Notes under the pieces: generated by a model | Database searches by the model: none | The model's input: only the letters and a program-made list of their open reading frames with translations | What the model was told of the DNA's origin: nothing | Part shown: piece after piece, positions 691 to 58,957 of the stretch | Layout: the number at the start of each line of letters is the position of its first letter | How positions within the stretch are numbered: position 1 is the first letter of the stretch | Made by a program: the position numbers and the translations under genes | Origin: an uncultured Candidatus Saccharibacteria bacterium | GTDB taxonomy: Bacteria > Patescibacteriota > Minisyncoccia > Phycocordibacterales > UBA9973 | DNA: 64,000 nt | Assembly: GCA_964348725.1 (NCBI GenBank) | Contig: CAYGDG010000001.1 | Location: 1,898-65,897, forward strand | Reading direction: 5' to 3'

Positions 691-3600
691 CTACACCTCC
701 TTTGCTGCTTCTATCACGATGCTTTTTTCGCCGTTGCGCACGGTGACTTTGCCGGAGACCGCGATGCATTTTTCGGCTGTGAAGAGGGCGGCGGATTTTT
801 GGTATAAGGAAGGGAAGACGACGGCTTCTATGGAGCCCGTGAAGTCGGCTATCTTGATGAATGCCATTTGTTCATTCTTTTTCGTGATGATGGGGCGACA
901 GGATTCTATGATGCCGGCGATGGTGATGGGGAAACCGTTGCTGACCTCGGCGATTATTTTTTTTATGTTCATATCGCGCTTTTCCAATTTTTCGCGGATG
1001 CGGTCCAGCGGATGCCCGGAGATATACAAGCCGAGCAATTCTTTTTCCCAGAGCAATTTTTCCGCTTGCGGAACATCCGGCGCGTCTTGCAGCTTAAAGT
1101 TCGGCAGGGAACTGCCGGAGATGCCGCCAAAAAGTGAAACTTGATTTATGTTCTGTGTGGAAGATTGTTTGTTGTATTCAAGCATATCTTCTACGTTAAA
1201 AAGTAAAGCACCGCGCTGGCCGAATTCATCCAATGCTCCGGATTTGATAAGGGCTTCCATTGATTTTTTGTTTAAGTTTTTATGCTTGATGCGATCCAGA
1301 AAATTCGTGATGTCTGTAAAATTGCCATTCGTTTTGCGTTCGGTGATGATGGCGTCCGAAATATCCGTGCCCATATTTTTAATAGTATACAAACCGAAAC
1401 GGATTTTTTCGCTGACTTCGCCATTTCTGATAACAGTAAATCCACCGTAGCTTTCATTGATGTTCGGCGGCAGTACTGGTATGTTCATCTTTTTGCACTC
1501 TTCAATAATTTCAGAAATTTTTTCCACGTCGCCGGATTCGGCCGTGAGGATGGCGGTCATGTATTCCACCGGATAGTTCGCTTTCATGTATGCAGTCTGG
1601 TAGGCCACTTTGCCGTATGAAGCCGCATGCGCTTTATTGAATCCGTACGCCTGGAATGGCTCAAAGAGCTTCCATAATTCTTCGGCGAATTTTTTGGTCT
1701 GGCCATGCTCCACGATGCCTTTGGTAAATTTATCTCGCTGAGCGGCCATCTCGGCCGGAATTTTTTTACCGACGGCTTTGCGGAATTTATCCGCTTCTTC
1801 CCAGTTGTAGCCGGCCATTTCCAATGCGCAGAAAAGCAGGTCGTCCTGGTACACGATGAGTCCATACGATTCGCCAAGGAATTTTTTCATGCGCGGATCC
1901 AGATATTTCACGAGATGCGGATTGTGCTTACGCTTGATATATTCGGGAATAGATTCCATCGGGCCGGGGCGGTACAGGGCCACCATGGCATTGATGTCAT
2001 GAATGGATGACGGGCGCAGTTCTTTCAAGTAGCGCGTCATGCCGGAGCCGTTCAACTGGAACAATCCTTCGGTCTGCCCGCTGGCGAGGAGCGCGAAAGT
2101 TTTTTTGTCGTCCAAGGGGATGCGTTCTATGTCTATATCTATATTATAAAATTTCTTTACGAGCGAAATTGCATCTCCTAAAATCGCGAGGTTCCGAATG
2201 CCGAGGAAGTCAAACTTGAGGAGCCCAGCTTCTTCCACAGAATACATATCGTACTGCGTGATGCGCTTGCCGCCTTTGGGGTCCAGCTGTATCGGCGTGT
2301 AATCCGAAATGGCAGTTGGTGCTATCACGACTCCCGCCGCGTGCACGGAGATGTGCCTGGCGCATCCTTCCATTTTTTTTGCAAGGTCAATTATTTTTTT
2401 CGTGTCCGGCTCTTTCTTATACGCTTCGGCGAGTTCGGGCACGATTTCCATGGCATGGTCCAGCGTCATCGGCATGCCTTGCGAACCCATCGGAATGAGC
2501 TTGGATAATCTGTCGCCGATGTCATACGGATAACCGAGTGAGCGAGCGACATCACGCACTGCACCGCGCGCCATCATCGTACCAAACGTTCCTATCTGCG
2601 CCACTTTATCCTCGCCGTATTTGTGCTTCGCATACTCTATCATTTCGTCGCGGCGGTTGTCGGCGTAGTCCATGTCTATATCGGGCGCGGACGGGCGGAA
2701 CGGATTCAAGAAGCGCTCAAAGGGCAATTTGTATTCTATCGGGTCCACATTCGTGATGCCGAGAAGATAGGTGACCATGGAGCCCGCCACCGAGCCTCTA
2801 ATGGTAGTCAAAATCCCGTTCTCTTTGGCGTGGCGCAGAAGGTCGCCCACCACCAGGAAGTATGGCGAGTAGCCTTTGGTAAAAATAATTTCCAGCTCGT
2901 ATTCCACGCGCTTCAGTATCTCCGGCGTTTCTTTCAAGCCGAGGCGCGCGAATCCGGCAAATGCCAGCTCGCGCAATTTTTCATCATATGATTTTCCGTC
3001 TTCAATTTTTAAGTCGGGGAAAACCCACTTGCCGAGTTCAAGTTCAATATTGCACATGTCAGCCACTTTCACCGTATTCGTCACCGCTTCCGGGCAGTCC
3101 GCAAATGCTTCCATCATTTTCTCTGCTGGCAGGAATGAAAAATCATCATTTGAAAATTCAAACTTCGCGCCTTCCTTGCCATCACCCTGCGTATTTATCT
3201 GAAGCAATGTGTGATGCGCATCGTGATCGTCACTGCACGGATAGTGCGAATCCTGCGTCGCCACTACATCCACGCCATGTTTTTTTGCCAGCTTGATAAG
3301 GGTGTCGCGTACCATCTTGTCATTTTCCACTGACGGATGATGCTGGATTTCAATAAAATAATTTTCTTTGCCGAAAATATCCTGGTGCTCTTGTACTAAT
3401 GCGTCCATTTTTTCCATATCACCTCGCAATGCCGCCTGGGACAGCTCGCCGCCGAGGCAAGCGGACAGCGCGATGATGCCTTCCGAATGTTGGCGCAAGA
3501 TTTCTTTGTCCATGCGCGGCTTATAGTAATAACCTTCCAAGTTCGCTAGCGTGACGAGCTTGATGAGGTTCTTGTACCCGATATTATTTTTCGCGAGCAG

Positions 3601-4608: not shown

Positions 4609-5244
4609 ATGAAAAAAAGAAAAGTACTTCTGGCGATTGCGATCGTCAGCTTCCTGGCGCCGGGAGTCACCTGGGCACAAGAGAGTGCAGCACCTGCACA
4701 GCAAACTGTTCCTCAAAATCCGGAACAAGCTGTGGAAACTAACGAAGGAGGTGCGGTGTTGAAAGTCACGGTCGGTGCAGGCTATGATCTGCGCCGTGAT
4801 GCGTTGCTGTTGGCCGGATGGACTCTCATGACTGAAGAAGATCTGCAACGTGCGAGGTTGATGCTCTCTTTTTCTTTCCCAACGACCTCTTTCGCAGCCA
4901 CTATAGCGGTCTCGCCATTTAATGGCAGGTTTGGAAATTGTCTGCAGATCGGCGCGGAAGTGGCATACTTTTATAAATCTAATATAAGAGTAAAAATTTT
5001 CTCTAAGCATTTGGCACCATCTGACACTGCCTTTAGCGATCCCAAAGCTTCTTGGAACACAACAATGGCATATTCTTTGCCATTCATAGGGGTTTCTATT
5101 CCCTTTGGAAGTCGAGTATCTCTTGTTGTTCAAAGCAATACGTTTTGGTATCTGGCCTGGGTGCGTTATGGGTACAAAGATTGGTCAGGATCACGCGAAT
5201 GGGGAAGTGTGCACGGAAGCCTTACTTTTCGTTTGAGCGAATAA
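4609..5244 (+). CDS. Secreted hypothetical protein with an N-terminal signal peptide
   Basis: MKKRKVLLAIAIVSFLAPGVTWAQESAAPAQQ signal peptide. No recognisable catalytic motif. Confidence 0.5.
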   Translation: MKKRKVLLAIAIVSFLAPGVTWAQESAAPAQQTVPQNPEQAVETNEGGAVLKVTVGAGYDLRRDALLLAGWTLMTEEDLQRARLMLSFSFPTTSFAATIAVSPFNGRFGNCLQIGAEVAYFYKSNIRVKIFSKHLAPSDTAFSDPKASWNTTMAYSLPFIGVSIPFGSRVSLVVQSNTFWYLAWVRYGYKDWSGSREWGSVHGSLTFRLSE

Positions 5245-5252
5245 ATGTAAAT

Positions 5253-5290
5253 AAAAGAGTGAACAAAAAAAAATTGTTCACTCTTTTTTA
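5253..5290. terminator. Bidirectional rho-independent terminator between convergent genes
   Basis: Hairpin agagtgaac-(a9tt)-gttcactct followed by a T6 tract. It sits between the stop at 5244 (+) and the stop at 5291 (-). Confidence 0.55.
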
Positions 5291-5968
5291 TTACAAATTT
5301 ACAGCGAGGTATGAACCGATCATTGCCGCCGTCTCGCCGCGGAGGGTAAGCGGGCCGAGAGATGCGACAGAGAAACTTTTTTCTTTCGAGAGGGTGAGCT
5401 CTTCTTCGCTCCATCCGCCTTCGGGGCCGATCCAGATATTCATATTTTTTGTACCTGATTTTTCAAATTTCGTTCCCGACATATGGAATAAAATATTTTC
5501 GCCGGTAGTTGCCTCGAGCGCATTTTTAAAATCCCTCGGCTCGGAAATTTCCGGCACGGAATTTCTGCCGCTCTGCTCCGCCGCTTCTTTGGCGATTTTT
5601 CGCAGACGCTCCATATTGAGTCCGGTTTTTATGGTGCGAGCGGTGAGGATGGGGATTATTTTTGATACGCCACATTCGGTTGCTTTCTGCACGACGAGTT
5701 CAAAATTTTCTTTTTTCAATATGGCGCAATATAAGGACACTTCGCGTTCAAGTTTTGCTTCTTCTCGGGATTCTACGCGTATTTTCACAGCAGCACCTAC
5801 TATTTCTATTATTTCAGCCAAAGCGGATTTGCCTTTGCCATCCGAAAGTTCTATTTTTTCACCCGGCTCAAGACGCAGGATTTTGGCCATCTGGCGGCCT
5901 TCTTCACCGCCTATTTCGAGCGTATTTTGGGCTAAATCGAAATCCCCAATAAATCGGTGTATTTTCAT
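5291..5968 (-). CDS. rsmE: 16S rRNA (uracil1498-N3)-methyltransferase, RsmE family
   Basis: MKIHRFIGDF... N-terminus and the NIWIGPEGGWSEEEL motif are typical of RsmE; 225 aa. Confidence 0.8.
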   Translation of the reverse strand: MKIHRFIGDFDLAQNTLEIGGEEGRQMAKILRLEPGEKIELSDGKGKSALAEIIEIVGAAVKIRVESREEAKLEREVSLYCAILKKENFELVVQKATECGVSKIIPILTARTIKTGLNMERLRKIAKEAAEQSGRNSVPEISEPRDFKNALEATTGENILFHMSGTKFEKSGTKNMNIWIGPEGGWSEEELTLSKEKSFSVASLGPLTLRGETAAMIGSYLAVNL

Positions 5969-6015
5969 ACAAATATCCTAGCATATGTATTGGCATTTCT
6001 GGTATACTATAGGGT

Positions 6016-7065
6016 ATGGAGAATAAGAAAATCAGAGTGGCAATAAACGGATTCGGGCGCATCGGGCGAGCTTTCTTGAAAGTGGCTTGGGAGCGCGAAG
6101 AGATAGAAGTGGTAGCGGCGAATGATCTTGGCGACCATGAGAACATGGCATATCTTTTAAAATATGACACGGTGTACGGAAAATGGAATCACGAAGTCAA
6201 AGCGGAAGCTGATGGCTTGGTAATCGACGGCAAGAAGGTGTTGATGTATGCCGAAAAAGATCCGGCTATGCTGCCATGGGGCAAGCTCGATATCGATGTG
6301 GTCATCGAATCGACTGGTTTCTTTACCGCATATGACAAAGCGAATGCGCATATCACGGCGGGAGCAAAGAAAGTAGTCATCTCCGCGCCGGCAAAAGAAA
6401 GCACAGAAGCCGGCATTCCGGGCTTGCCCGCCGTGGTGGGCGCGACTATTTTACTGGGAGTGAACGAAAATAAATTTGGTACCTGCCCGCTCACTTCAAA
6501 TGCGTCATGTACTACAAATGCGGCCAGTCCTCTCATCGCGATTTTGGATGAAGCTATTGGAATTGAAAAAGCGATCTTGAATACCGTGCACGGATATACT
6601 GCCACGCAGTCCCTCGTAGACGGCCCTGCCGGTAAGAAAGGCTTTCGTGAAGGACGCGCCGCGGCGCAGAACATTGTGCCGACATCGACTGGTGCGGCCA
6701 TTGCCGTGACCAAGGCATTCCCATCACTCGAAGGACTTTTTGACGGTGTGTCCATCCGCGTGCCGGTGCCTGCCGGATCGATCGTAGACATCACTTTCAT
6801 CGCCAAGAAAAATACGAGTGCCGAAGAAGTGAATGACATCCTGCGTAAAGCAGCCAAAGAGGCCCGATGGCAGAGAATTTTTGCCGCTACTGACGAACCG
6901 CTTGTATCTTCCGACATTCTCGGAGAATCCCACGCATCCATCGCACAGCTTGATCTTACCCGTGTCATCGGGGGGAATCTGGTGAAAGTGATGGGTTGGT
7001 ATGATAATGAGATGGGGTACACCCACACACTCGTCGATCATGCCATAAAGACGGGAAGGGCATAA
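6016..7065 (+). CDS. gap: Glyceraldehyde-3-phosphate dehydrogenase
   Basis: IRVAINGFGRIGR Rossmann N-terminus and SNASCTTNAASPL active-site Cys motif; 349 aa. Confidence 0.9.
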   Translation: MENKKIRVAINGFGRIGRAFLKVAWEREEIEVVAANDLGDHENMAYLLKYDTVYGKWNHEVKAEADGLVIDGKKVLMYAEKDPAMLPWGKLDIDVVIESTGFFTAYDKANAHITAGAKKVVISAPAKESTEAGIPGLPAVVGATILLGVNENKFGTCPLTSNASCTTNAASPLIAILDEAIGIEKAILNTVHGYTATQSLVDGPAGKKGFREGRAAAQNIVPTSTGAAIAVTKAFPSLEGLFDGVSIRVPVPAGSIVDITFIAKKNTSAEEVNDILRKAAKEARWQRIFAATDEPLVSSDILGESHASIAQLDLTRVIGGNLVKVMGWYDNEMGYTHTLVDHAIKTGRA

Positions 7066-7067
7066 AT

Positions 7068-7511
7068 ATGAAAATTTACATCGCAAGCGATCACGCCGGA
7101 TACGAGCTCAAAGAGAAGCTGAAGCTGTACCTGCACGGCCCGAACCAGGATGTCCGCGATTTCGGCGCGTATGTAAATAATCCGGATGATGATTATCCCG
7201 ATTTCGTAAAACCGCTGGCAGTGGCAGTGGCAACTACATCTGACAGCTGTGGCATCGTCATTGGCGGCTCGGGCGAAGGCGAAGCGATATGCGCGAATCG
7301 CGCGCCGAATGTCCGCGCCTGCCAATTCTACGGCGGCAATCTCGATGTCGTCAAAGTGGCGCGCGAGCACAATAATGCGAATGTGCTTTCCCTCGGTGCG
7401 CGATTTATCACTGAAGAAGAAGCGCGCAAAGCAGTCGATATTTTCCTGACTACCGCATTTTCCGGTGACGAGCGGCACAAGCGCCGTATCGAGAAGCTCG
7501 ACATCCTGTAA
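7068..7511 (+). CDS. rpiB: Ribose-5-phosphate isomerase B (RpiB/LacAB family)
   Basis: MKIYIASDHAGYELKEKL... and GIVIGGSGEGEAICANR are typical of RpiB; 147 aa. Confidence 0.85.
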   Translation: MKIYIASDHAGYELKEKLKLYLHGPNQDVRDFGAYVNNPDDDYPDFVKPLAVAVATTSDSCGIVIGGSGEGEAICANRAPNVRACQFYGGNLDVVKVAREHNNANVLSLGARFITEEEARKAVDIFLTTAFSGDERHKRRIEKLDIL

Positions 7512-7514
7512 ATT

Positions 7515-8219
7515 ATGGCTGAAATAATCCCGGCAATCCTGCCAAAAAATTATGAAGATATGAAGAATAAGATCGCACTCGTGCGCGGGATCGTTCCTGT
7601 GGTGCAGATAGATTTTTGCGATGGCGTTTTTGTAAATACTCGTACGTGGCCATATTCGACCGGCGGCAATGAAGATTATTATTTCCGCAAGATCATGGAT
7701 GAGGAAGAAGGAATGCCGTTCTGGGAAGATATCGATTTTGAACTCGACCTGATGGTACGGGATGCAGTGGAGAATTTCGATATTTACATGAAGCTTGGCC
7801 CGAAGCGGATGGTTTTTCATATCGAGGCTGTAGGTGATTTGGAGGAATTCCGCAATTTTGTGGAAGGACTTGATATGTATGTGCGTGAAAATGTGCAGAT
7901 CGGTGCCGCGATACAAATAGGCACGCCTACAGAAAATATTTTTCCGATCGTGCCGCATCTCGATTTCGTCCAATGTATGGGTGCTGAAAGCATCGGCCGC
8001 CAAGGGCAGCCTTCGGATGATCGCGTGCTTGAAAAAATAAGAACGCTCGCTGAAAAATTTCCTGGCCTTGAGATATCCGTGGACGGGGGAGTAAATATGG
8101 AAACTGCGTCCGACCTCGTAGCGGCCGGAGCCACCCGTCTTGTCGTCGGCTCGGCGATATTCCGTACGGATGATATAATTGGAGCGATAGAGAACTTGCG
8201 CGATGCAAGTGAGCAGTAA
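7515..8219 (+). CDS. rpe: Ribulose-phosphate 3-epimerase-like (TIM barrel)
   Basis: The IPAILP..., VQIDFCDGVFV and ISVDGGVN...RLVVGSAIF pattern matches the Rpe family. It follows rpiB and precedes transketolase. Confidence 0.65.
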   Translation: MAEIIPAILPKNYEDMKNKIALVRGIVPVVQIDFCDGVFVNTRTWPYSTGGNEDYYFRKIMDEEEGMPFWEDIDFELDLMVRDAVENFDIYMKLGPKRMVFHIEAVGDLEEFRNFVEGLDMYVRENVQIGAAIQIGTPTENIFPIVPHLDFVQCMGAESIGRQGQPSDDRVLEKIRTLAEKFPGLEISVDGGVNMETASDLVAAGATRLVVGSAIFRTDDIIGAIENLRDASEQ

Positions 8220-8227
8220 GAATACAA

Positions 8228-9088
8228 ATGCTTAATGACCAAAAAATAAAAGAACTCGAATATAAGGCGAACGATATTCGAAAGAGCATTATTGAAATGC
8301 TTGTGGAAGCTGGTAGCGGACACACTGCCGGTCCGCTCGGCATGACGGACATCTTTACTTTTTTCTATTTTCACGCGCTCAAGCACGATCCGAAAAATCC
8401 CGAATGGCCGGAGCGCGACCGCGTCATACTTTCAAACGGGCACATCTGCCCGGTGCTGTATGCCACCATGGCGCATGCCGGTTATTTTCCGGTGGAAGAA
8501 TTAAAGACGCTCCGCAAATGGGGTAGCCGTTTACAGGGGCATCCGCACCGCGAATACTTGCCGATGGTGGAGAATTCATCCGGACCGCTCGGTTCTGGTC
8601 TTTCGCAGGCCGTGGGTATGGCGCTTGCTGATAAGATAGACGGAAAAGACAAAGATAGATTTATTTATGCTTTTCTTTCGGATGGTGAGCACAATGAGGG
8701 TAATACATGGGAGGCTATACTATTAGCGGGAAAAAACAAACTTCGGAATCTTATCGCCATCATAGACAGGAATAATATTCAGATAGACGGCAATACGGAG
8801 GACATCATGCCGCTCGAGAATTTTGCGGATAAATATCGCGCTTTCAATTGGCATGTCATTGAATGCTCCGGTCATAATTTTATCGCTTTGCAGCAAGCGC
8901 TCGATGAAGCACAGGCAGTGGCTGAGAAGCCATCCGTCATCATCGCGCATACGATTCCCGGCAAAGGCGTGCATGAATTCGAGCGAGATTACAAATGGCA
9001 CGGCAAGCCGCCGACGAAAGAAGAAGCTGTTATGGCTTTGAAAGAACTCCGCACGCTTGGCGGCAAAATTACAAGCGAACACGAATAA
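8228..9088 (+). CDS. tktA: Transketolase, N-terminal (TPP pyrophosphate-binding) subunit of a split transketolase
   Basis: GSGHTAGPLGMTDIFTFFYFHAL and GHPHREY motifs; 286 aa. The stop at 9088 is followed immediately by the C-terminal subunit gene. Confidence 0.85.
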   Translation: MLNDQKIKELEYKANDIRKSIIEMLVEAGSGHTAGPLGMTDIFTFFYFHALKHDPKNPEWPERDRVILSNGHICPVLYATMAHAGYFPVEELKTLRKWGSRLQGHPHREYLPMVENSSGPLGSGLSQAVGMALADKIDGKDKDRFIYAFLSDGEHNEGNTWEAILLAGKNKLRNLIAIIDRNNIQIDGNTEDIMPLENFADKYRAFNWHVIECSGHNFIALQQALDEAQAVAEKPSVIIAHTIPGKGVHEFERDYKWHGKPPTKEEAVMALKELRTLGGKITSEHE

Positions 9089-9090
9089 AT

Positions 9091-10086
9091 ATGCTGAACC
9101 CGAAATTAAAATTAAATCCGAAAGTATTTAATGCCGAATGCGAGCAGGTACCCATCCGCCAGGGCTTTGGGCAGGGCCTTTTGAAAGCGGGCGAGCTGGA
9201 TGAAAATGTCGTCGCTCTGTGTGCAGACCTGACCGAAAGCACAAAGATGAATTTATTTGCCGAGAAATTTCCGAAGCGCTTTGTGGAGATCGGCGTGGCA
9301 GAGCAGAACTTGGCGACGGTCGCCAGCGGCATGGCCGCGATGGGAAAAATTCCTTTCTGTTCTTCATATGCTATGTTTTCTCCTGGCAGGAATTGGGAGC
9401 AGATACGCACGACCATCGCATACAACGACCGCAAGGTCGTCATCGTCGGCTCGCACGCGGGCATTTCTGTGGGTCCCGACGGCGGTACGCACCAGGCGCT
9501 CGAAGACATGGGCCTGATGCGCCTGATTCCGAATATGGATGTCATTTCTCCGTGCGATGCGCTGGAAGCCAAACGAGCGACGCTCGCTTTAGCCAAATCA
9601 AAACGTCCGGCATACCTGCGCCTCGCTCGCGAGAAGACACCGATAATTACCACAGAAGAAACTCCGTTTGAAATAGGCAAAGCAGAAATATATTGGCTGC
9701 CGGACAGCGGTCTTGCTCATGTAGGCATCATCGCCACCGGCGCGCTTGTGCATAAGGCGCTCCTTGCCGTCAAAGAACTTGAAAATGAAATTAAAATAAA
9801 AGTATTGAACCTGCCTTCGGTAAAACCGCTTGATAGAGAAGCAGTCATTGCTCTGGCTAAAGAATGCAAAGCGATCGTGACGGTAGAAGAACATCAAAAA
9901 ATGGGTGGTATGGGTTCAGCTGTCGCTGAAGTATTGGCCCAGGAATTTCCAGTACCTATAGAATTCATCGGTGTGGCTGATCGATTCGGCCAGTCCGGAA
10001 CACCGGAAGAGCTCGTAGAAAAATACGGTATGGGAAAAGATTCTATAGTAGAAGCAGTGAGGAAAGTGTTGAAAAGAAAAAATTAA
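9091..10086 (+). CDS. tktB: Transketolase, C-terminal (pyrimidine-binding) subunit
   Basis: ORF 8995..10086. The plausible start is MLNPKLK at 9091, just after the tktA stop. FGQGLLKAGELDENVVALCADL and IGVAEQNLATVASGMA motifs. Confidence 0.85.
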   Translation: MLNPKLKLNPKVFNAECEQVPIRQGFGQGLLKAGELDENVVALCADLTESTKMNLFAEKFPKRFVEIGVAEQNLATVASGMAAMGKIPFCSSYAMFSPGRNWEQIRTTIAYNDRKVVIVGSHAGISVGPDGGTHQALEDMGLMRLIPNMDVISPCDALEAKRATLALAKSKRPAYLRLAREKTPIITTEETPFEIGKAEIYWLPDSGLAHVGIIATGALVHKALLAVKELENEIKIKVLNLPSVKPLDREAVIALAKECKAIVTVEEHQKMGGMGSAVAEVLAQEFPVPIEFIGVADRFGQSGTPEELVEKYGMGKDSIVEAVRKVLKRKN

Positions 10087-10706
10087 TTCTGACGCATTTG
10101 CTTTTTTATCTCCAATCGTTCTTTCTTTTCCTTCTGTTCATTTTCATACGATTCTCGTTCTTCGTCAGATTCATAATTTTCAGCGTACATAATCGCATTA
10201 TCAAGCTCTTTTTTGTAATGTTGTCTTATCAAGTTAATTTTAAATATCGCTTCATTTTTTGCGGCAATTTTAGCACTTAGATCTTCTTTTAGGCCTGGAA
10301 GCATGCCAGCCGTATCTATATTTTTTAGTCTCTCTAATTCCGTCTCTTCCTTTAATAAATCGTTATTTATTTTTTCTATATTTTGTTCAAACCGAGGAAT
10401 ATCCTCGATTGATTTTAAGATTGATTGCCGACTCTGCTTTTCTTTAAATTCTTCTTTGGAGAGATTGATAATTTGTTGATTGATTGTTTCTTTCACCGAT
10501 TCGTTATTAATTGTCGCACTCATTATATTTGTAAAATTTTCCTCCCCAAAAATATCTTTTAAATGCTCAAGTATGGCATTTATATCTTCCTGAGATTCTT
10601 GCCCCAAGGCATTTTTCTTGAAAAAGTTTATTTCAGATGCTGAAATCTTGTTTGACCAAAGCCCACCTTCTTTTACTTTTCTCAGAAAAAAGTCTTCTTT
10701 ATCCAT
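10083..10706 (-). CDS. Hypothetical coiled-coil protein
   Basis: 207 aa, K/E-rich with heptad-like regions. No enzymatic motif recognised. Confidence 0.4.
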   Translation of the reverse strand: MDKEDFFLRKVKEGGLWSNKISASEINFFKKNALGQESQEDINAILEHLKDIFGEENFTNIMSATINNESVKETINQQIINLSKEEFKEKQSRQSILKSIEDIPRFEQNIEKINNDLLKEETELERLKNIDTAGMLPGLKEDLSAKIAAKNEAIFKINLIRQHYKKELDNAIMYAENYESDEERESYENEQKEKKERLEIKKQMRQN

Positions 10707-11739: not shown

Positions 11740-12141
11740 CTATGCTTTTTTGGCAGGTCGGCACTTTGCACAGGTGCAGCCGTATGGCTTGATGTATTCG
11801 TCAAACATCTCTTTGCCGTAATCATAACAAAGCTCTTGGTCCGCCGTGATATTCTTTTTCGCGGATATCCAGATCCTGCCGCCAATGATATCTACTTCGC
11901 AATTCGCGACCGATTTGCAGGCGTGATTGATATAGCGCGCGAGATTTTTCCGGCTCTTGCCGTCGATCGTCCATTTGGAATTTATTTCGAAGAGATACAT
12001 CCCGCCGCGACGGTTTGCTTCTTCAGCGGTAATCTTGTCGCCGACATACTCGATTATTTTTTTACCTTTCTGGATCGGTGCGGTTATATACAGCCCCAGG
12101 CCGGCGGTGGATCTTTTTATTTTGAGCAGGGAATTTTGCAT
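11740..12141 (-). CDS. SET-domain protein (putative protein lysine methyltransferase)
   Basis: GLGLYITAPIQKGKKIIEYVG, YINHACKSVANCE (an NHSCxPN-like motif) and ELCYDYG (an ELxxDY-like motif), followed by a Cys-rich post-SET tail GCTCAKC; 133 aa. Confidence 0.7.
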   Translation of the reverse strand: MQNSLLKIKRSTAGLGLYITAPIQKGKKIIEYVGDKITAEEANRRGGMYLFEINSKWTIDGKSRKNLARYINHACKSVANCEVDIIGGRIWISAKKNITADQELCYDYGKEMFDEYIKPYGCTCAKCRPAKKA

Positions 12142-12210
12142 CCAAACATTATACTATGAAGAAAAAGAAATCCTAATGAAACAAGAAAGATTATGTGATA
12201 AAATGACGTA

Positions 12211-15200
12211 GTGGAAAAAATACCCCAGCAGTCCCCAAAAAGCTCCGAAAATAAAGAGCAAAAAACTGTTATCGCCCCGCTGAGCCTCGAATATTTCAAT
12301 AATACTGCGGAAGGAAAGAGATATAAGGAAGAAATTATTTCATTGCTGCCGGACCTGAACCAGCAATTCAAATTTCCCGGCGGGGAGCAATTTAGAATGC
12401 TCGATTATTTACATCAAGCAAGAATAAAATATTTTTTAGGGGAAAAATTTGAAGATGACATCGAAGCTGCGAGAGGCTTATTTAAAAACGTCCAAGATAC
12501 CCAGCAGAAGCAGTTAATGGAGAACAACTATGCTGACGGCCTGATGTCTTTGATGGAGGAATTCCAATCTCCCGATGATCGATATGTGGAACAGCTACTC
12601 CGGCTCGCTTCGGAACTTTCTACCGCAGATTTTATTTTAAAGAATCATAAACAAGATAAAAGCGCATTAGTGCAGCGTGTCGCCAGTTTATATGCGGAAA
12701 GTGGAAATTTCGAAAAAATTCCCAAATTATTTGAAGAAATCAAATCTCCTTTCCATCAGATTATTTTTTTTACTGACTTGATCAAGACTACTGACGATAG
12801 GGAGCAGGTCGAAAGTCTACTATCAAAAGCGAAAAATATTTTTTCAAAAGTGAATAAATCCGATTATCTATACCGTAAAGCTGCGGAAAAACTTATCTAT
12901 GCTCTCGCGCAGAACGGGTACCAGGCGGAAATCGGGCAAATCCTTAATTCTATGAGTAATAATGCTTCCAAAATAAATACGTTACTTTCTTTAGCAAAAA
13001 TGAATAATTTTTCTGAAGATACAAAAAACAAATTTCTTCAGTCGGCGCTTGAAATTGCGGAAAGCGAAAGCAATAGCGATATCGATAAAAATAATAATTA
13101 TGGCAGGATTGCGGCCTGGTATGTCGATAATAATAATACGGAAAAGGCTGATGAAATTTTAAAGCTTAATGAGCCGGGTACTACTTTTCAACCTTCAAGT
13201 TTTCTTGAAGGTCTGTCTCCACACTCTTTGCGTCACAATGAAAGAGCCAGAGAGTATGTCACTCAGTATCTAGCAGATGAGACTGTTTTTAAGCCAGTGA
13301 GCCGTGATATTAATAATGGCACTTTTATTAAAACCTTTACGCAAATGGGTCTCAATGACGAAGCTATGGATATAATTGCAGATCTCAATCTTGTGAATCC
13401 CCATATAACCCTTAGCAATATTAATTCTTTTATCAATGGCATAAATGATTATCTGTCCGCAGAAAAGACAAACAAAAAAGAAATTCAGCAAAATACAGGT
13501 GTGGAATTTTATGCAGATATTTTTTCCACTCCCAAAAAAGCTTTTTGGGCGGGATATTTTATGCTTGGAAAAAAAGAGCACATGAGTGCTGATATCCCTG
13601 AACACATACAAATAGCTTATGAATTGGGAGAATCCTATGACTATAAATATAAAAAGTACAAAAAGACACCATATGATTTTGGAGCCCTGCATGATGCTAA
13701 ATCCGTAAGAACCTTCCTCCAAGCAATGGAGAATTATAAATTTGAAAATATTCCCGAAGCTTTGGAATCTATATTGCAGGCATTGCCGGAAGAAGCGGAT
13801 CAGGCTGTCTATGAATTTATTTCAACCAATCCTGAAGCCGCTCGTCGATTGATAAAAGTGCTGATTTCCATAGATGCGAACAAGGGCAGTCGATATGCGC
13901 TTGACTTGATTGCGCGTAAAAGCACACCGGATAAAGTATTTACTTATTTCTCGAAATTGTTTATGGAGCATGGCCGCTTTACAAAAGAACTTGCTCCTTT
14001 TCTTTCGGAGCCTGAAGATATCCTTATCGTCAGACGACTTGTCTCTCAATACCCGAATCAGCTCAATAATGTAATAGACACTTTAGCCCAAATAGGATTG
14101 AAAAACTTTGCCAAAGAGGAAACCCTTTGGGATGCTCTGGAAGATCTAGGAACTTTGACTCCGGGTATATATAAAAAGTACCGTTCCTTGAATCCGTTAG
14201 AAAGAAAGAAGTTCGTGGAAAAAGTAGAAAAATTTGACTATTCAAACTTCTTTGAAAATAAGCCTGTCCCAGGCGGCGAGGCCGATCAGGAATTTGATCA
14301 GGATGTCATGCTCGATCTGCTGTACAGAGCTTATAATCCCGTAAATATGAGCTACGAACGTGTAAGGGAATTATTGCCCCAAGTCAAAGACAGGACAGGG
14401 GATCTGAAAAATTATTTTTTCCCCTCGAGCTATGACGTAGAATTTTCAGTGCCGTCGTATGTATTGAAGACCGGTGAAAGCATTTCAGGGGAAACGCTCG
14501 GAAAAATAAAAAATGTTTTAAACAGCGCTGATGACCAGCTTACGGACGAAGCGTTTTTGAAGCTCATCCGGGCGACGACCGATTTTACTGAGGCCGAAGC
14601 TGCCGCTCTTTTTTCAGTGTTGAGAAATGAGTCGCAGGTACTGGCGGCGAAAAGCAATATGTACTCCGGTCTCGATACTAATGCGTTCCAGGATCTTTCT
14701 TCCCTGAAAGAAATATTCGGTGTTTTTGCCGCGGACAATTTTGGCACAAAAATGATGGAAAAAATAAAGCAGGAAAATAAGATATCCAATAAAGCGGAGC
14801 AATTGTTAAAAAATCACACACGTCGTAAAAATCTTCTGAAAGCTCTCGGCTATCAGTCGGAAAATGAGCTCACAGAAAGCATTCCCACTATAGAACTGGC
14901 CTCACGCCTCTTCGCGGAGCAAGTACTGTCCAAATATGTTGTGCTCATCAATAAGGAGCTACGCAAATTCATTTCTTCTCCCGACGCCGGCCAAGCAAAA
15001 AAGAATGCGAAAGCGTATGTTTCAAAAAACCAAGGATCATTTTTTGCAAAAGCGACTGCCGGAATATGCACGGCAGGAGATGTAGAGCTGTGGGATATGC
15101 CGAATCATTTTCATATAAACATTGTGAATGAAAATCAAATGGTCAAAGGCAATACGATGGCGTATATAGAAAATGTCGAAGGGAAGAAATCTTTGGTATT

Positions 15201-15465
15201 GCGCGGCTTCAATCCCTCGGATATGTATCTCAAAGAAATAACTGCCGAGTCGTTTGTGGAGGAAATGCTGAAAGTTGCCCGAGATTTTAAAAAGCTAAAT
15301 AATCTGGAGCATATTTACATCATAATAGGGGGTACGTGGGATTCCAATAGACCCCAGATTAGAAATTATCTTGCGCAACAATATCTTTCCAAATTAAAAG
15401 CCGTTCCTTATGAGATGGCAGTCTCTGGGTTTTCGAAGACACAAGGTGTTTTTCTCCTGGAATAA
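12211..15465 (+). CDS. Giant (1084 aa) orphan protein in an AT-rich island. Function unknown.
   Basis: A single uninterrupted ORF, K/E/N-rich and predicted all-alpha. No signal peptide, no Walker A motif and no recognisable catalytic motif. Its GC is visibly lower than the flanking housekeeping genes. Confidence 0.5.
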   Translation: MEKIPQQSPKSSENKEQKTVIAPLSLEYFNNTAEGKRYKEEIISLLPDLNQQFKFPGGEQFRMLDYLHQARIKYFLGEKFEDDIEAARGLFKNVQDTQQKQLMENNYADGLMSLMEEFQSPDDRYVEQLLRLASELSTADFILKNHKQDKSALVQRVASLYAESGNFEKIPKLFEEIKSPFHQIIFFTDLIKTTDDREQVESLLSKAKNIFSKVNKSDYLYRKAAEKLIYALAQNGYQAEIGQILNSMSNNASKINTLLSLAKMNNFSEDTKNKFLQSALEIAESESNSDIDKNNNYGRIAAWYVDNNNTEKADEILKLNEPGTTFQPSSFLEGLSPHSLRHNERAREYVTQYLADETVFKPVSRDINNGTFIKTFTQMGLNDEAMDIIADLNLVNPHITLSNINSFINGINDYLSAEKTNKKEIQQNTGVEFYADIFSTPKKAFWAGYFMLGKKEHMSADIPEHIQIAYELGESYDYKYKKYKKTPYDFGALHDAKSVRTFLQAMENYKFENIPEALESILQALPEEADQAVYEFISTNPEAARRLIKVLISIDANKGSRYALDLIARKSTPDKVFTYFSKLFMEHGRFTKELAPFLSEPEDILIVRRLVSQYPNQLNNVIDTLAQIGLKNFAKEETLWDALEDLGTLTPGIYKKYRSLNPLERKKFVEKVEKFDYSNFFENKPVPGGEADQEFDQDVMLDLLYRAYNPVNMSYERVRELLPQVKDRTGDLKNYFFPSSYDVEFSVPSYVLKTGESISGETLGKIKNVLNSADDQLTDEAFLKLIRATTDFTEAEAAALFSVLRNESQVLAAKSNMYSGLDTNAFQDLSSLKEIFGVFAADNFGTKMMEKIKQENKISNKAEQLLKNHTRRKNLLKALGYQSENELTESIPTIELASRLFAEQVLSKYVVLINKELRKFISSPDAGQAKKNAKAYVSKNQGSFFAKATAGICTAGDVELWDMPNHFHINIVNENQMVKGNTMAYIENVEGKKSLVLRGFNPSDMYLKEITAESFVEEMLKVARDFKKLNNLEHIYIIIGGTWDSNRPQIRNYLAQQYLSKLKAVPYEMAVSGFSKTQGVFLLE

Positions 15466-15467
15466 CT

Positions 15468-15496
15468 TGACAAATTGATATCTTGGGTCTAGAATA
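15468..15496 (+). promoter_or_regulatory. Sigma-70-like promoter (TTGACA, 17-nt spacer, TAGAAT)
   Basis: ttgacaaattgatatcttgggtctagaat, located 28 nt upstream of the 15524 start. Confidence 0.4.
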
Positions 15497-15523
15497 TTCT
15501 TAAATTCTTAAACAATAATATCA

Positions 15524-16168
15524 ATGAAAACAACACCAACACCAATTCACCTTTCCCAAGTGGGAGAGCAATTAGGTCGGCTTTTCACAAAGCTCGCCGA
15601 GCCAGGGGGAAGTATTCTGTGGGAGAAACTCAATTATCTCCTTGATCAGGACTACTCGAATGATCACCCTTCGATGGTTCTTGGAGCCGTTTCGGCTGAA
15701 CAAGGAATCAAAGGCAAAGAGTTCTCCTTTTCCTTCAACGATTGCGACAAGTCTTGCCTCATAACCGAGGTAAAAAAGACCGTCAAGATCAAAGATTGGG
15801 CGAGTGATCTCATTCAGAAGAACACGCACTTTGCCATCGAGAAGATTGAAGGAAAACGAACCTTCCTTGCTGTCTCTTTGGCCGATCTCGGATTCAAGGA
15901 GAAGACGTCTCTTCCGGAGGTACTAACGAGAGCAAAAAAACTCGGATTAAATTATTGTCCGGACAGGACAGCATTGGAATATTGTTTGCACTCGCCGGCG
16001 ATCCTGAAAGCCGACAGGATATTTTTTGCTTCTGTTCCTGCGAGGATACCGAAAAGGGATCTGAAAGACCACATCTTACGCCTTTCAAAAGGGGAACTTG
16101 ATGCAGTCCGTGTTTTCTCGGATCGCTACCTGGTACCTGGGGATTTGATTATTTTCTTAAAAGGATAA
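15524..16168 (+). CDS. Hypothetical protein (214 aa) downstream of the giant orphan protein
   Basis: No recognisable motif. It has its own promoter and a strong terminator. Confidence 0.45.
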   Translation: MKTTPTPIHLSQVGEQLGRLFTKLAEPGGSILWEKLNYLLDQDYSNDHPSMVLGAVSAEQGIKGKEFSFSFNDCDKSCLITEVKKTVKIKDWASDLIQKNTHFAIEKIEGKRTFLAVSLADLGFKEKTSLPEVLTRAKKLGLNYCPDRTALEYCLHSPAILKADRIFFASVPARIPKRDLKDHILRLSKGELDAVRVFSDRYLVPGDLIIFLKG

Positions 16169-16175
16169 TCATTTT

Positions 16176-16214
16176 AAATGCCTTCTGAATTTTCAGAAGG
16201 CATTTTGTTTTTCC
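16176..16214 (+). terminator. Rho-independent terminator
   Basis: aaatgccttctgaa-ttt-tcagaaggcattt hairpin followed by tgtttttcc. Confidence 0.55.
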
Positions 16215-31990: not shown

Positions 31991-32665
31991 ATGGAAAAAA
32001 CTAAAAACAATGGAAAGTTATTTATCAGCATCGCACTCGTTTTATTTGCAGTAGCATTTTTTATCGCAGCCAAGAGTTTTTCAGATCAAGGTGCATATGT
32101 TGAAGTAAAAGGATTGTCTGAAAAAATTGTAAAAGCAGACACCGCCATCTGGTCTATGAATTTTGAAGTTAAATCAAATAGCATAGATATGCTTTATGCA
32201 GATATTGAAAAGAATTTAACGACCATTAAAACTTTTCTCAAAGAACAAGGTTTTGAGGATAGTGAAGTGAACATAGCTCCTGCTAATATATATCAAGATA
32301 CATACAGAGAAGCTGTCTTTAGATATAATTCTATGAATCAAATTTCCGTGTATACAAACAAAGTAGATCAAGCAAAAAAGAGCTCAAATGAGACTTTGAT
32401 GCTCGTAAAAAAAGGTGTGGTGCTTACGCAAAATTCGATTTCATTTAATTTCTCAGATTTAAACAGTATCAAGCCAGAAATGCTCGCAGAAGCTATAAAA
32501 AATGCTCGTGATACAGCATCACAATTTGCAGTAAATTCTGGCTCCTCTATCGGAGGGATAGTGAGAGGAAATCAAGGTGTATTTGATATCACCGACAAAG
32601 ACCCAGGCTCTCCAGAATTCAAAAAGATTCGTCTCGTCTCCACACTTCGTTTTCTGCTTAAATAG
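31991..32665 (+). CDS. Membrane-anchored protein, possibly SIMPL/DUF541-like
   Basis: N-terminal TM plus a roughly 200-aa domain whose size and pattern (VEVKGLSEKIVKADTAIWSMNFEV...) resemble SIMPL. This is a weak call. Confidence 0.4.
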   Translation: MEKTKNNGKLFISIALVLFAVAFFIAAKSFSDQGAYVEVKGLSEKIVKADTAIWSMNFEVKSNSIDMLYADIEKNLTTIKTFLKEQGFEDSEVNIAPANIYQDTYREAVFRYNSMNQISVYTNKVDQAKKSSNETLMLVKKGVVLTQNSISFNFSDLNSIKPEMLAEAIKNARDTASQFAVNSGSSIGGIVRGNQGVFDITDKDPGSPEFKKIRLVSTLRFLLK

Positions 32666-55540: not shown

Positions 55541-56047
55541 TTATTCCTCTATATTTTTAGCTCGTTTCAAGAAAATTAAATCCCTTTTTACGATAAATTT
55601 GCCGCCATATATGGTCGGGCTATCTTTACTCAACTTTTTAATGGCTTCATGTAAAGTCATCCATTTTATTTGAAAACCCGCATCCTTTTCAGATTTAGTA
55701 AAACTATGATTGCCATATTTAGACACTTTTGCCATATAGCAATAAGATAATTGTATCTTTTTAAATTTATCCCTATATTCAATTATCATACCGACTTCCT
55801 TGCCAATTTTTGCAGTACATCCTGTTTCCTCCTTTATTTCTCTGGCTAGGGCAGTTTTAATATCTTCATTATTTTCTACTCCGCCGCCGGGTATTTTATG
55901 ATATCCGTCTCTAGAAACAAAGAGCATTGCAACTTTGTTTTCCTTATCAAAAAGTATCGCTCGTGCGGCTTTTCTCACAGTGTATGTGACACTTTTTTGA
56001 TTCTTAACACCAATATCTTTATTATATATTTCTTTCAGTAATTCCAT
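55541..56047 (-). CDS. NUDIX hydrolase
   Basis: Nudix box GGGVENNEDIKTALAREIKEETGC; 168 aa. Confidence 0.8.
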   Translation of the reverse strand: MELLKEIYNKDIGVKNQKSVTYTVRKAARAILFDKENKVAMLFVSRDGYHKIPGGGVENNEDIKTALAREIKEETGCTAKIGKEVGMIIEYRDKFKKIQLSYCYMAKVSKYGNHSFTKSEKDAGFQIKWMTLHEAIKKLSKDSPTIYGGKFIVKRDLIFLKRAKNIEE

Positions 56048-58322: not shown

Positions 58323-58397
58323 GGCCCTATCGTCTAACGGTTAGGACGCCGGCTTTTCAAGCCGTTAATCCGGGTTCGATTCCCGGTAGGGTCACCA
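58323..58397 (+). tRNA. tRNA-Glu (anticodon TTC)
   Basis: GGCCCTA-TC-GTC-TAACGGTTA-GGAC-G-CCGGC-TTTTCAA-GCCGT-TAAT-CCGGG-TTCGATT-CCCGG-TAGGGTC-A-CCA. CCA is encoded. Confidence 0.8.
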
Positions 58398-58413
58398 GTT
58401 TTAAATTTTTTAA

Positions 58414-58502
58414 GGAAACGTGGCTGAGTGGTTTAAGGCACTTGTTTCGAAAACAAGCGTCCGGGAAACCGGACCGTGAGTTCAAATCTCACCGTTTCCG
58501 CA
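58414..58502 (+). tRNA. tRNA-Ser (anticodon CGA), with a long variable arm
   Basis: GGAAACG-TG-GCTG-AGTGGTTTAAG-GCA-CTTGT-TTCGAAA-ACAAG-CGTCCGGGAAACCGGACC-GTGAG-TTCAAAT-CTCAC-CGTTTCC-G-CA. Confidence 0.8.
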
Positions 58503-58576: not shown

Positions 58577-58957
58577 ATGTCAAAAAACAATTTCATCTTT
58601 ATTCTGGAGAGTTCTCTAGAGAAACAAAGTGAGTATCTAGAAAAGAATACGACAGGATTTGATATCCTGTTTGCACGTACTGCTAATCAAGCACAAGAGA
58701 TGCTTGAGGAGAATTTGAATAAGATTAAATACATTGTGATTGCCGGTTGCGGAGAAGAGCCAGGCATGGCTGAAACTTTTGAACAGGAAGAATTTGTTCA
58801 GTATATTAAAAATGAATGGTATTTTTGTGATATTTTTTTCATTTCATCAAACTTAAAAACAAATACTATTTTGAAAAATTTCGAATGTATTGTTTGTATG
58901 GAAAGCCAATTATTTCAGAAAATAGAAGAGTTGGAAAAAGAAAACAAAATAGCATAA
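58577..58957 (+). CDS. Hypothetical protein (126 aa), AT-rich, with a possible degenerate receiver-like fold
   Basis: Alternating beta-alpha pattern (FIFILESS... ILFARTANQAQEMLEE... YIVIAGC). No conserved Asp pocket is evident. Low confidence. Confidence 0.3.
   Translation: MSKNNFIFILESSLEKQSEYLEKNTTGFDILFARTANQAQEMLEENLNKIKYIVIAGCGEEPGMAETFEQEEFVQYIKNEWYFCDIFFISSNLKTNTILKNFECIVCMESQLFQKIEELEKENKIA

Follow-up and report, generated by a model that had tools for sequence, protein, structure and literature searches.

A pair of adjacent genes in a 64,000-nucleotide stretch of DNA from an uncultured Candidatus Saccharibacteria bacterium (the window, as we call the whole stretch below) encodes a protein of 1084 residues followed by a smaller partner of 214 residues. 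At a rough probability of 0.55, we read the large protein as a soluble, cytoplasmic, multidomain enzyme whose C-terminal domain, predicted to resemble the Gcn5-related N-acetyltransferases (GNATs), transfers acyl or aminoacyl groups in a process that plausibly involves tRNA, and the small protein as its accessory. An initial annotation, made from the letters of the window alone, had presented the pair as an AT-rich island coding for an all-alpha orphan protein and its partner, and as a candidate effector, toxin, or defense-like module; both open reading frames (ORFs) that it claimed are present, on the same strand (Table 1), and library searches agree with it that neither protein belongs to a curated family.

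Extent of the family

Searches of Pfam, NCBIfam, PADLOC, PHROGs, and PDB sequences with both proteins, singly and by profile, returned nothing usable, and a word-indexed homology search turned up a single homologue, P0002 (52% identity), for the large protein and nothing for the small one. For the large protein, the near-orphan status suggested by the word-indexed search was overturned by an exhaustive HMMER search with a two-sequence profile, which recovered 437 relatives at an E value of ≤1e-3, 222 at ≤1e-10, and 89 at ≤1e-30 (all counts are of representatives of 50%-identity clusters), and with it falls the label of "orphan" given in the initial annotation. Five representatives are full-length relatives of 1078 to 1122 amino acids, and the full-length orthologues P0002 and P0004 to P0007 are about 41 to 53% identical to the window protein. 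The remaining relatives mostly share residues ~545 to 1090 only, and the most distant ones ~920 to 1065 only; this shared core is found nearly always at the extreme C terminus of proteins of 800 to 3500 amino acids whose N termini are unrelated. One relative, P0130 (3574 amino acids), carries three copies of the core domain (residues ~1394 to 1507, 2603 to 2711, and 3307 to 3426).

When 27 and 46 diverse members were compared with Pfam, no model covered the shared region, and N-terminal matches in members (0.001 cutoff) were limited to TPR/PPR-type repeats, DnaJ, and a few isolated domains. The family profile, run against all PDB sequences, gave no match, and the window contains no paralogue of the core domain. 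Source annotations of the relatives read "hypothetical protein" only, the organisms named among them are Candidatus Kerfeldbacteria and Candidatus Nomurabacteria, and literature searches found no earlier description of the family. It is an undescribed family, centered mostly on genomes of the candidate phyla radiation (CPR)/Patescibacteria type. Members fused to a region resembling aspartyl-tRNA synthetase (AspRS; see below) sit in loci of 40 to 60% GC, including a 563-kb contig, so the core domain is not confined to low-GC CPR genomes. The N-terminal half of a 1935-amino-acid member from Candidatus Nomurabacteria (positions 4868 to 10675 of locus L003; also in L015 and L016) consists of dozens of tandem repeats of ~35 residues that Pfam does not recognize and whose consensus is roughly NFKDLNHxEIxxKLIxxG.

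Predicted fold and conserved residues

The last ~165 residues of the large protein, which the initial annotation had called all-alpha, are modeled as an alpha/beta domain. In an AlphaFold2 model of residues 544 to 1084 built from a 46-sequence alignment (mean predicted local distance difference test score [pLDDT] of 91, predicted template-modeling score [pTM] of 0.83), residues 930 to 1083 are arranged in the order beta1-alpha1-alpha2-beta2-beta3-beta4-alpha3-beta5-alpha4-beta6-beta7, which is the order of the GNAT fold. All of the 50 best structural matches in the PDB are GNATs, with weak scores (E values of 0.01 to 0.4 and target template-modeling [TM] scores of 0.40 to 0.50); they include NatD, Naa50, AAC, SpeG, and ItaT (7BYY), and matches in the BFVD library of viral structures are also dominated by GNAT/acetyltransferase folds. 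The model thus predicts that the C terminus folds like a GNAT acyltransferase, and the earlier statement that no domain can be recognized holds for sequence libraries but not for the predicted structure.

The helical module that precedes this domain (residues 544 to 915) is modeled with a pLDDT of about 90, and its T650 and P651 are nearly invariant or invariant. The N-terminal region is modeled as helices throughout, with a pLDDT of 70 to 80 at residues 60 to 330 and low values elsewhere; it is 41% identical to that of P0002, versus 62 to 67% for the rest of the protein, and distant relatives have no match to residues 1 to 543. At L009 (also L010), the orthologue is split into a 363-amino-acid ORF (4805 to 5896), weakly similar to window residues 153 to 354, and a 709-amino-acid ORF (6001 to 8130) that holds the conserved module, which means either that the gene is disrupted there or that the helical N terminus can be made as a polypeptide of its own. 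An AlphaFold model of the full-length protein, based on a two-sequence alignment, reached a pLDDT of 48, with helices up to about residue 950 and strands confined to the C-terminal end; its PDB matches were generic solenoids at TM scores of 0.1 to 0.2 and were not used for inference. Neither protein has a signal peptide or transmembrane segment (maximum Kyte-Doolittle 19-residue mean of 0.89), in keeping with what had been claimed about the signal peptide.

Conservation, computed over 168 dereplicated family domains, outlines a core signature of S-K-N-x-x-S-F-F-A-K...G-x-C-T...H-F-H-x-N...N...R-G-x-N-P...N-R, part of which is the motif GICTAGDVELWDMPNHFH at residues 951 to 968. The residues conserved at ≥85% are S938, K939 (97%), N940, S943, F944, F945, A946, K947, G951, C953 (98%), T954, H966 (88%), F967, H968 (91%), N970, N981, Y985, L995, R998 (95%), G999 (86%), N1001 and P1002 (98%), N1030, N1046, and R1047 (96%). 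On the model, conserved residues lie at the end of beta1, in alpha1 and the alpha1-alpha2 loop, in beta2 and beta3, at the end of beta4, and in the beta5-alpha4 loop. In the GNAT fold, the stretch from the end of beta1 through the alpha1-alpha2 loop constitutes the acceptor site, and the end of beta4 begins the pyrophosphate-binding loop. At the beta4-alpha3 position, the family has R998-G999-x-N1001-P1002, in which R-G is as in many GNATs and G-x-G/A is missing, a sequence compatible with a non-CoA donor or a noncanonical CoA site. The Cys...His pair that had been singled out earlier as a possible catalytic dyad is thus conserved; C953 and the histidines could form such a dyad, or C953 could be a thioester-forming nucleophile or a binding element.

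Possible connection to tRNA

Among the 46 members searched against Pfam, seven match PF01336 (the anticodon-binding OB fold of aminoacyl-tRNA synthetases [aaRSs]) and two match PF00152 (the class II Asp/Lys/Asn synthetase core; best E value of 1.4e-27), and 15 distant members carry an AspRS-like/OB N terminus. In P0127, residues 25 to 415 align over the full length of the archaeal-type AspRS 1n9w (E value of 2e-43). Because the motif 2 region is deleted there and the motif 3 arginine region reads GFTINLKYL, this AspRS core is probably inactive, and it may have been kept for tRNA binding. As sequence features, the AspRS-like fusions suggest a tRNA-linked acyl or aminoacyl transferase.

The genomic surroundings of other members offer weak hints. 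tRNA genes lie directly upstream of, and on the same strand as, family members at L001, the L003/L015/L016 group, L004/L005/L006, L062, and L078 (Table 1); such adjacency holds at 7 of 57 loci, and its ~5 independent lineages compare with roughly 0.4 expected from tRNA density, an excess of about tenfold. The upstream tRNAs differ in identity (Asp, Lys, Thr, Cys/Leu, and Pro), and with adjacency at just those 7 loci, it was dropped as a general rule and is kept as a weak hint only. The gene for GatB, subunit B of the tRNA-dependent amidotransferase, is found directly downstream of members in two related loci (L023, 3108 to 4670; L028, 4199 to 5665), a further, weak association with translation or tRNA.

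The small partner and its transcription

The pairing of the two genes was borne out: a partner homologue lies downstream of the large gene, on the same strand and at a distance of 60 to 100 bp, at L001, L004, L005/6, L007/8, and L009/10, making six genomes with the window included. The L001 homologue is 38% identical (E value of 1e-40), and the partner was found only with close orthologues of the large gene. Even by profile, it has no relative in Pfam, the PDB, or PHROGs, and none in JGI metagenome contigs. Nor did the partner profile match any of the downstream genes found at 48 additional loci of the family, and on that ground the idea that every member has such a partner or immunity protein was rejected. 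Instead of the partner, five loci have a truncated Peptidase_M42-like gene (about 270 to 285 amino acids) 7 to 31 bp after the family member (Table 1), the copies of L003 and L012 being 52% identical; by analogy with the hydrolase genes beside mprF and erdS, it is possible that this peptidase is a dedicated hydrolase. Elsewhere, the downstream gene encodes GatB, TatD, a RIO kinase, a UvrD-type helicase, or a methyltransferase, or is absent. Since other family loci have different or no downstream genes, the pair is a clade-specific elaboration and does not define the family.

At residues ~183 to 200 of the partner (nucleotides ~16070 to 16123), conserved H-I-L-R-[LI] and L-x-A-[VI]-R-[VI] motifs flank a loop. 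Longer versions of the protein (the L005, L007, and L009 equivalents) have a Lys-rich insertion between these motifs (KKVKKK, KLMKKK, or VKKKKK), and short versions retain one Lys (K189 in the window). To judge from its sequence, this loop may be a modification site or a charged loop.

The near-consensus promoter and the strong terminator reported in the initial annotation both withstand closer scrutiny. The small gene's promoter is the top promoter-like site in a 5.5-kb scan, and all six pair loci have a perfect TTGACA 1 to 13 nucleotides (nt) past the large-gene stop, with a -10 box at a spacing of 16 to 17 nt; a hairpin and T-run follow the small gene at five loci (the window, L001, L005, L007, and L009). 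No terminator was found between the two genes, so transcription of the small one probably draws on two promoters, its own and, by read-through, that of the large gene. For the large gene, the fuller promoter-scan entry spans 12176 to 12204, with a TG preceding the -10 box, and the sequence TGnTAAAAT followed by 6 nt and the start codon is kept in five orthologous loci (window, 12196 to 12213; L001, 122 to 138; L004, L005, and L007, just 5' of position 6001). That the conserved -10 box ends exactly 6 nt before the start codon implies a leaderless mRNA, as far as sequence can indicate; the window gene has a GTG start, which is unusual for leaderless mRNAs. An Rfam scan of the window returned five tRNAs only, and no T-box, riboswitch, or other RNA element.

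Table 1. Coordinates of the gene pair, its signals and domains, and selected genes at related loci
Feature	Position	Strand	Basis
Large gene, 1084 amino acids; GTG start, N-terminal M-E kept in orthologues	12211..15465	+	ORF list, homologue alignments
Residues 1-543, variable helical-repeat (alpha-solenoid-like) N terminus, close subfamily only	12211..13839	+	Model, homology
Residues 544-915, conserved helical module with one small beta-hairpin, in most of the family	13840..14955	+	Homology, model
Residues 916-1084, divergent GNAT-like alpha/beta domain (predicted), family core	14956..15462	+	Model, fold matches, conservation
Cys953 codon, sole cysteine of 1084 residues, candidate catalytic residue	15067..15069	+	Conservation; catalytic role inferred
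Small partner gene, 214 amino acids, basic (net charge +5), without known family	15524..16168	+	ORF list, homologues
Extended -10 element TG-a-TAAAAT, 6 nt before GTG of large gene	12196..12204	+	Promoter scan; function inferred
Sigma-70-type promoter TTGACA-17-TAGAAT for small gene, 2 nt past large-gene stop	15467..15495	+	11/12 matches
Intrinsic terminator, 13-bp stem, 4-nt loop, T-run (hairpin itself 16176-16205)	16176..16214	+	Hairpin scan
tRNA genes upstream of family members	L001 1-56; L003 4784-4857; L004 5883-5956; L005 5887-5960; L006 140-213; L015 304-377; L016 301-374; L062 7097-7332; L078 6444-6520		
Peptidase_M42-like genes	L003 10707-11387; L012 2817-3629; L014 2303-3160; L015 and L016, downstream ORFs		

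Neighboring genes

Proximity to a SET-domain gene and to surface-protein genes had been put forward as a clue to function, and neither is kept as a neighbor of the pair in other genomes. In the window, the SET-domain gene (PF00856, E value of 2e-19; 11740 to 12141, minus strand) lies 69 bp from the large gene in divergent orientation, and it adjoins the pair in no other genome examined; the large gene also lies near genes for large LTD/PKD-domain surface proteins, which are not conserved as neighbors in the other five pair genomes. The pair is flanked in other genomes by differing housekeeping genes, among them those for ThrRS, a DEAD helicase, NusB, RNase III, SMC, ParB, MurB, RelA, TopA, S6-SSB-S18, and EF-P. 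Two adjacent plus-strand ORFs of the window, 8228 to 9088 and 8995 to 10086, overlap by about 90 bp as listed; by their sequence, they look like a transketolase split into an N-terminal and a C-terminal half, the second of which probably begins at an internal Met.

Discussion

In the enzyme that we favor, the lineage-specific helical-repeat N terminus (residues 1 to 543) probably recognizes a target or partner, and the GNAT-fold domain (residues 916 to 1084) most likely passes an acyl or aminoacyl group to an acceptor. The predicted pocket would be lined by K939, N940, S943, K947, C953, T954, H966, H968, N970, N981, R998, N1001, P1002, N1046, and R1047, with Cys953 as the candidate nucleophile (via an acyl-thioester intermediate) or as an essential binding residue. 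The donor or substrate is plausibly tRNA or aminoacyl-tRNA rather than, or besides, acyl-CoA, because distant members have a degenerate AspRS and an anticodon-binding domain in place of the helical N terminus. The 214-residue protein would be a clade-specific accessory, be it an adaptor, a regulator, or an acceptor substrate, and is probably in excess of the enzyme, since read-through and its own strong promoter would both contribute to its transcription. A cytoplasmic, genome-resident protein is suggested by the lack of transmembrane or signal segments, the housekeeping neighborhoods, and a GC content that tracks that of the host. Catalysis, the identity of the donor, and the roles of Cys953 and of the partner are what we infer from these features, and the main uncertainty is the chemistry: an acyl-CoA or an aminoacyl-tRNA donor, and a transferase or a Cys-His hydrolase.

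Several observations weigh against this interpretation. The canonical acyl-CoA motif Q/R-x-x-G-x-G/A is absent, its place being taken by R998-G-F-N-P-S. No GNAT family of Pfam (Acetyltransf_1/3/7/10, FR47, and others) is among the hits of the window protein, of 27 members, or, even at an E value of ≤10, of the 46 members, and NCBIfam likewise gave none. The aaRS fusions occur only in distant members (homology over ~920 to 1065, E values of about 1e-16 to 1e-21) and the window protein has no aaRS part, so the link to tRNA may not extend to it; tRNA adjacency, too, is absent in the window and in ~85% of loci. Finally, the wider family has no common neighbor gene, and gene context therefore gives no pathway.

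Set beside the GNAT superfamily (NatD/Naa40, Naa50, and the aminoglycoside and polyamine acetyltransferases), the domain has the same predicted order of strands and helices, and its conserved residues fall, on the model, at the donor (beta4-alpha3, beta5-alpha4) and acceptor (alpha1-alpha2 loop, beta2) sites. It differs in escaping the GNAT models of Pfam and NCBIfam, with R-G-F-N-P replacing the canonical motif; in its nearly invariant pair of Cys and His; and in its position at the end of proteins of 800 to 3500 amino acids, behind a conserved helical module of ~370 residues. The concept of a helical-repeat scaffold with a GNAT unit is also that of NatA, which combines the TPR-solenoid Naa15 with the GNAT Naa10. 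Naa10, Naa50, and NatD are among the matches of the C-terminal domain, and Naa15 is among the low-quality solenoid matches, which are generic and come from the low-confidence model (pLDDT of 48, TM scores of 0.1 to 0.2). The predicted scaffold and GNAT parts are fused in one chain here.

ErdS of fungi offers a parallel in domain order: its AspRS precedes, in one chain, an aminoacyl-tRNA transferase domain of GNAT fold (DUF2156) (PMC7334510). The 15 distant members share this order, with an AspRS-like region and an OB fold followed by the GNAT-fold domain, and as with MprF and ErdS, a hydrolase gene can be nearby, in this case the M42-like peptidase beside some members. In contrast to the double GNAT of the DUF2156 proteins MprF and ErdS, whose two folds are separated by a positively charged helix, however, the family has a single GNAT-like domain after a helical module, and no match to DUF2156/LPG_synthase_C of Pfam was found in the 46 members; moreover, the AspRS of ErdS is active, whereas that of P0127, with its motif 2 region missing, is probably not. 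A bolder version of our reading, which we regard as possible but distinctly less probable, would make the family a new class of tRNA-dependent transferase, with a single GNAT-like domain in which C953 relays an acyl or aminoacyl group from tRNA or aminoacyl-tRNA to a protein or small-molecule acceptor. The interchangeable N termini would then serve in recruitment, as helical repeats in CPR bacteria and elsewhere as pseudo-AspRS modules that read the anticodon. The M42-like peptidase would reverse the reaction by hydrolysis, and the small partner would be either an adaptor or the acceptor itself. If true, this would amount to an unrecognized system of posttranslational or metabolite aminoacylation, widespread in CPR bacteria.

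We think it unlikely that the protein is instead a Cys-His hydrolase, that is, a thiol peptidase, deamidase, or thioesterase on a GNAT-like scaffold with a dyad of C953 and H966 or H968. In its favor, H968 and the protein's lone cysteine, C953, hardly vary across the family, the canonical motif for CoA binding is missing, and the M42-like peptidase gene adjoining some members hints at peptide or amide chemistry. Against it, only 15 residues separate the Cys from the His, which the model places on the alpha1-alpha2 loop and on beta2, respectively, of a GNAT-type fold; the best PDB matches listed include no thiol-hydrolase fold; and the equally conserved K939, K947, R998, and R1047 would better suit a phosphate-bearing donor, whether CoA or tRNA.

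We hold it no more probable that the genes form a toxin-immunity or toxin-antitoxin pair, in which a GNAT-like toxin acylates, for example, aminoacyl-tRNA and the partner neutralizes it, after the manner of the type II GNAT toxins TacT, AtaT, and ItaT with their DUF1778 antitoxins (PMC4942678, PMC7595197, PMC7367177). The resemblances are the GNAT fold (ItaT being among the fold matches), two genes of which one encodes a small partner, and a possible connection to tRNA, some members having tRNA-binding fusions; the domain also stands at the extreme C terminus of large proteins with variable N termini, and the small gene follows directly, with a strong, conserved promoter of its own that could supply its product in excess. 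Those toxins, however, are standalone proteins of ~170 amino acids that use acetyl-CoA, have the canonical motif, and are preceded by the ribbon-helix-helix (RHH)/DUF1778 antitoxin gene within a single autoregulated operon, whereas the protein here has 1084 residues, its partner has its own promoter, lies downstream rather than upstream, and matches neither RHH/DUF1778 nor any other Pfam model, and most family members have no partner. More than 60 additional loci have the domain beside unrelated downstream genes or none at all, which does not suit an obligatory immunity protein. Nor does the family resemble polymorphic toxins, which have N-terminal secretion domains, a conserved N terminus and variable C terminus, and an immunity gene downstream, and each of which traits it fails to show; its conserved C terminus behind variable N termini is the very reverse. 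Its loci lie among housekeeping genes, with none in viral contigs.

More doubtful still is a role in host interaction, with the protein as an effector, or a factor associated with the surface, that an episymbiotic CPR bacterium would deliver to a host cell. The protein is large and repeat-rich, belongs to CPR-type genomes, has relatives with variable N termini, and is encoded beside large LTD/PKD-domain surface proteins in the window, but it has no signal peptide, transmembrane segment, or known secretion domain, those neighbors are not kept in the other five genomes, and in five of the six pair loci the large gene has what appears to be a simple leaderless promoter of housekeeping type. The initial annotation's proposal of an effector, toxin, or defense module finds no backing in PADLOC (neither protein matches at E ≤1) or PHROGs, in viral relatives, or in a secretion signal or trafficking domain.

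The composition of the pair is less unusual than had been claimed. Compared with 52 nonoverlapping window ORFs (mean GC of 46.2%, standard deviation of 5.4), the large gene is mildly AT-rich, at 39.6% GC (z of -1.2) and 39.7% GC at third codon positions (GC3; z of -1.0), but the small gene is average, at 45.7% (z of -0.1), and five window ORFs are clearly richer in AT than the large gene, so that the "AT-rich island" holds for one gene and only in mild form; GC per kilobase spans 34 to 56% across the window. Nor do K, N, E, and I codons dominate: Leu is the commonest residue (10.1%), and the shares of K (8.9%), E (8.7%), and N (7.2%) are elevated without being extreme. The genes directly 3' of the pair have equal or lower GC3, and those directly 5' have a GC3 of 55 to 59%. 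The large gene is 6.7 GC points under its 12 kb of flanks; it is 1.4 to 6.8 points below the flanks in all six pair genomes, yet tracks host GC (30 to 40%), whereas the GC of the small gene equals or exceeds that of the flanks. Because the offset recurs in six genomes and the GC follows the host, the AT bias is intrinsic to the large gene rather than a mark of recent transfer. Flanking direct repeats in the window are only short, chance-level ones, the nearest tRNA gene is ~31 kb from the pair, no integrase was seen among the ORFs examined around it, and IMG/VR viral contigs hold no relatives of the large protein. A recently acquired genomic island, which the depth below the flanks and the GC3 of the upstream genes might have favored, is on these grounds very improbable and largely refuted.

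Real compositional outliers do occur in the window. One is nearby, a 207-amino-acid ORF (10083 to 10706, minus strand; 31.9% GC, z of -2.7) with a subthreshold match to CTD8 of ABC-three-component systems (E value of 8e-4, 20.1 bits versus a cutoff of 27.6). Three others (31991 to 32665, plus strand; 55541 to 56047, minus strand; 58577 to 58957, plus strand) have 31 to 35% GC, with z below -2, and are richer in AT than the large gene; the last adjoins tRNA-Glu and tRNA-Ser genes (58323 to 58501).

CPR/Patescibacteria genomes are small and rich in unannotated genes, and one "hypothetical" protein among these now becomes a defined family with a predicted fold, a sharp signature that looks catalytic, and one conserved cysteine as a target for mutation. 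On the strength of the model, we view the family as a divergent, fairly large, undescribed branch of the GNAT fold with a cysteine-centered signature, and the recurrent fusion to a degenerate AspRS gives a testable hypothesis, namely, activity on tRNA or aminoacyl-tRNA. Enzyme families known to divert aminoacyl-tRNA from translation are few (the Fem enzymes, MprF/ErdS, the L/F- and R-transferases, and the GNAT toxins), and a further class of this kind, if true, would be of interest to the fields of both tRNA biology and the CPR.

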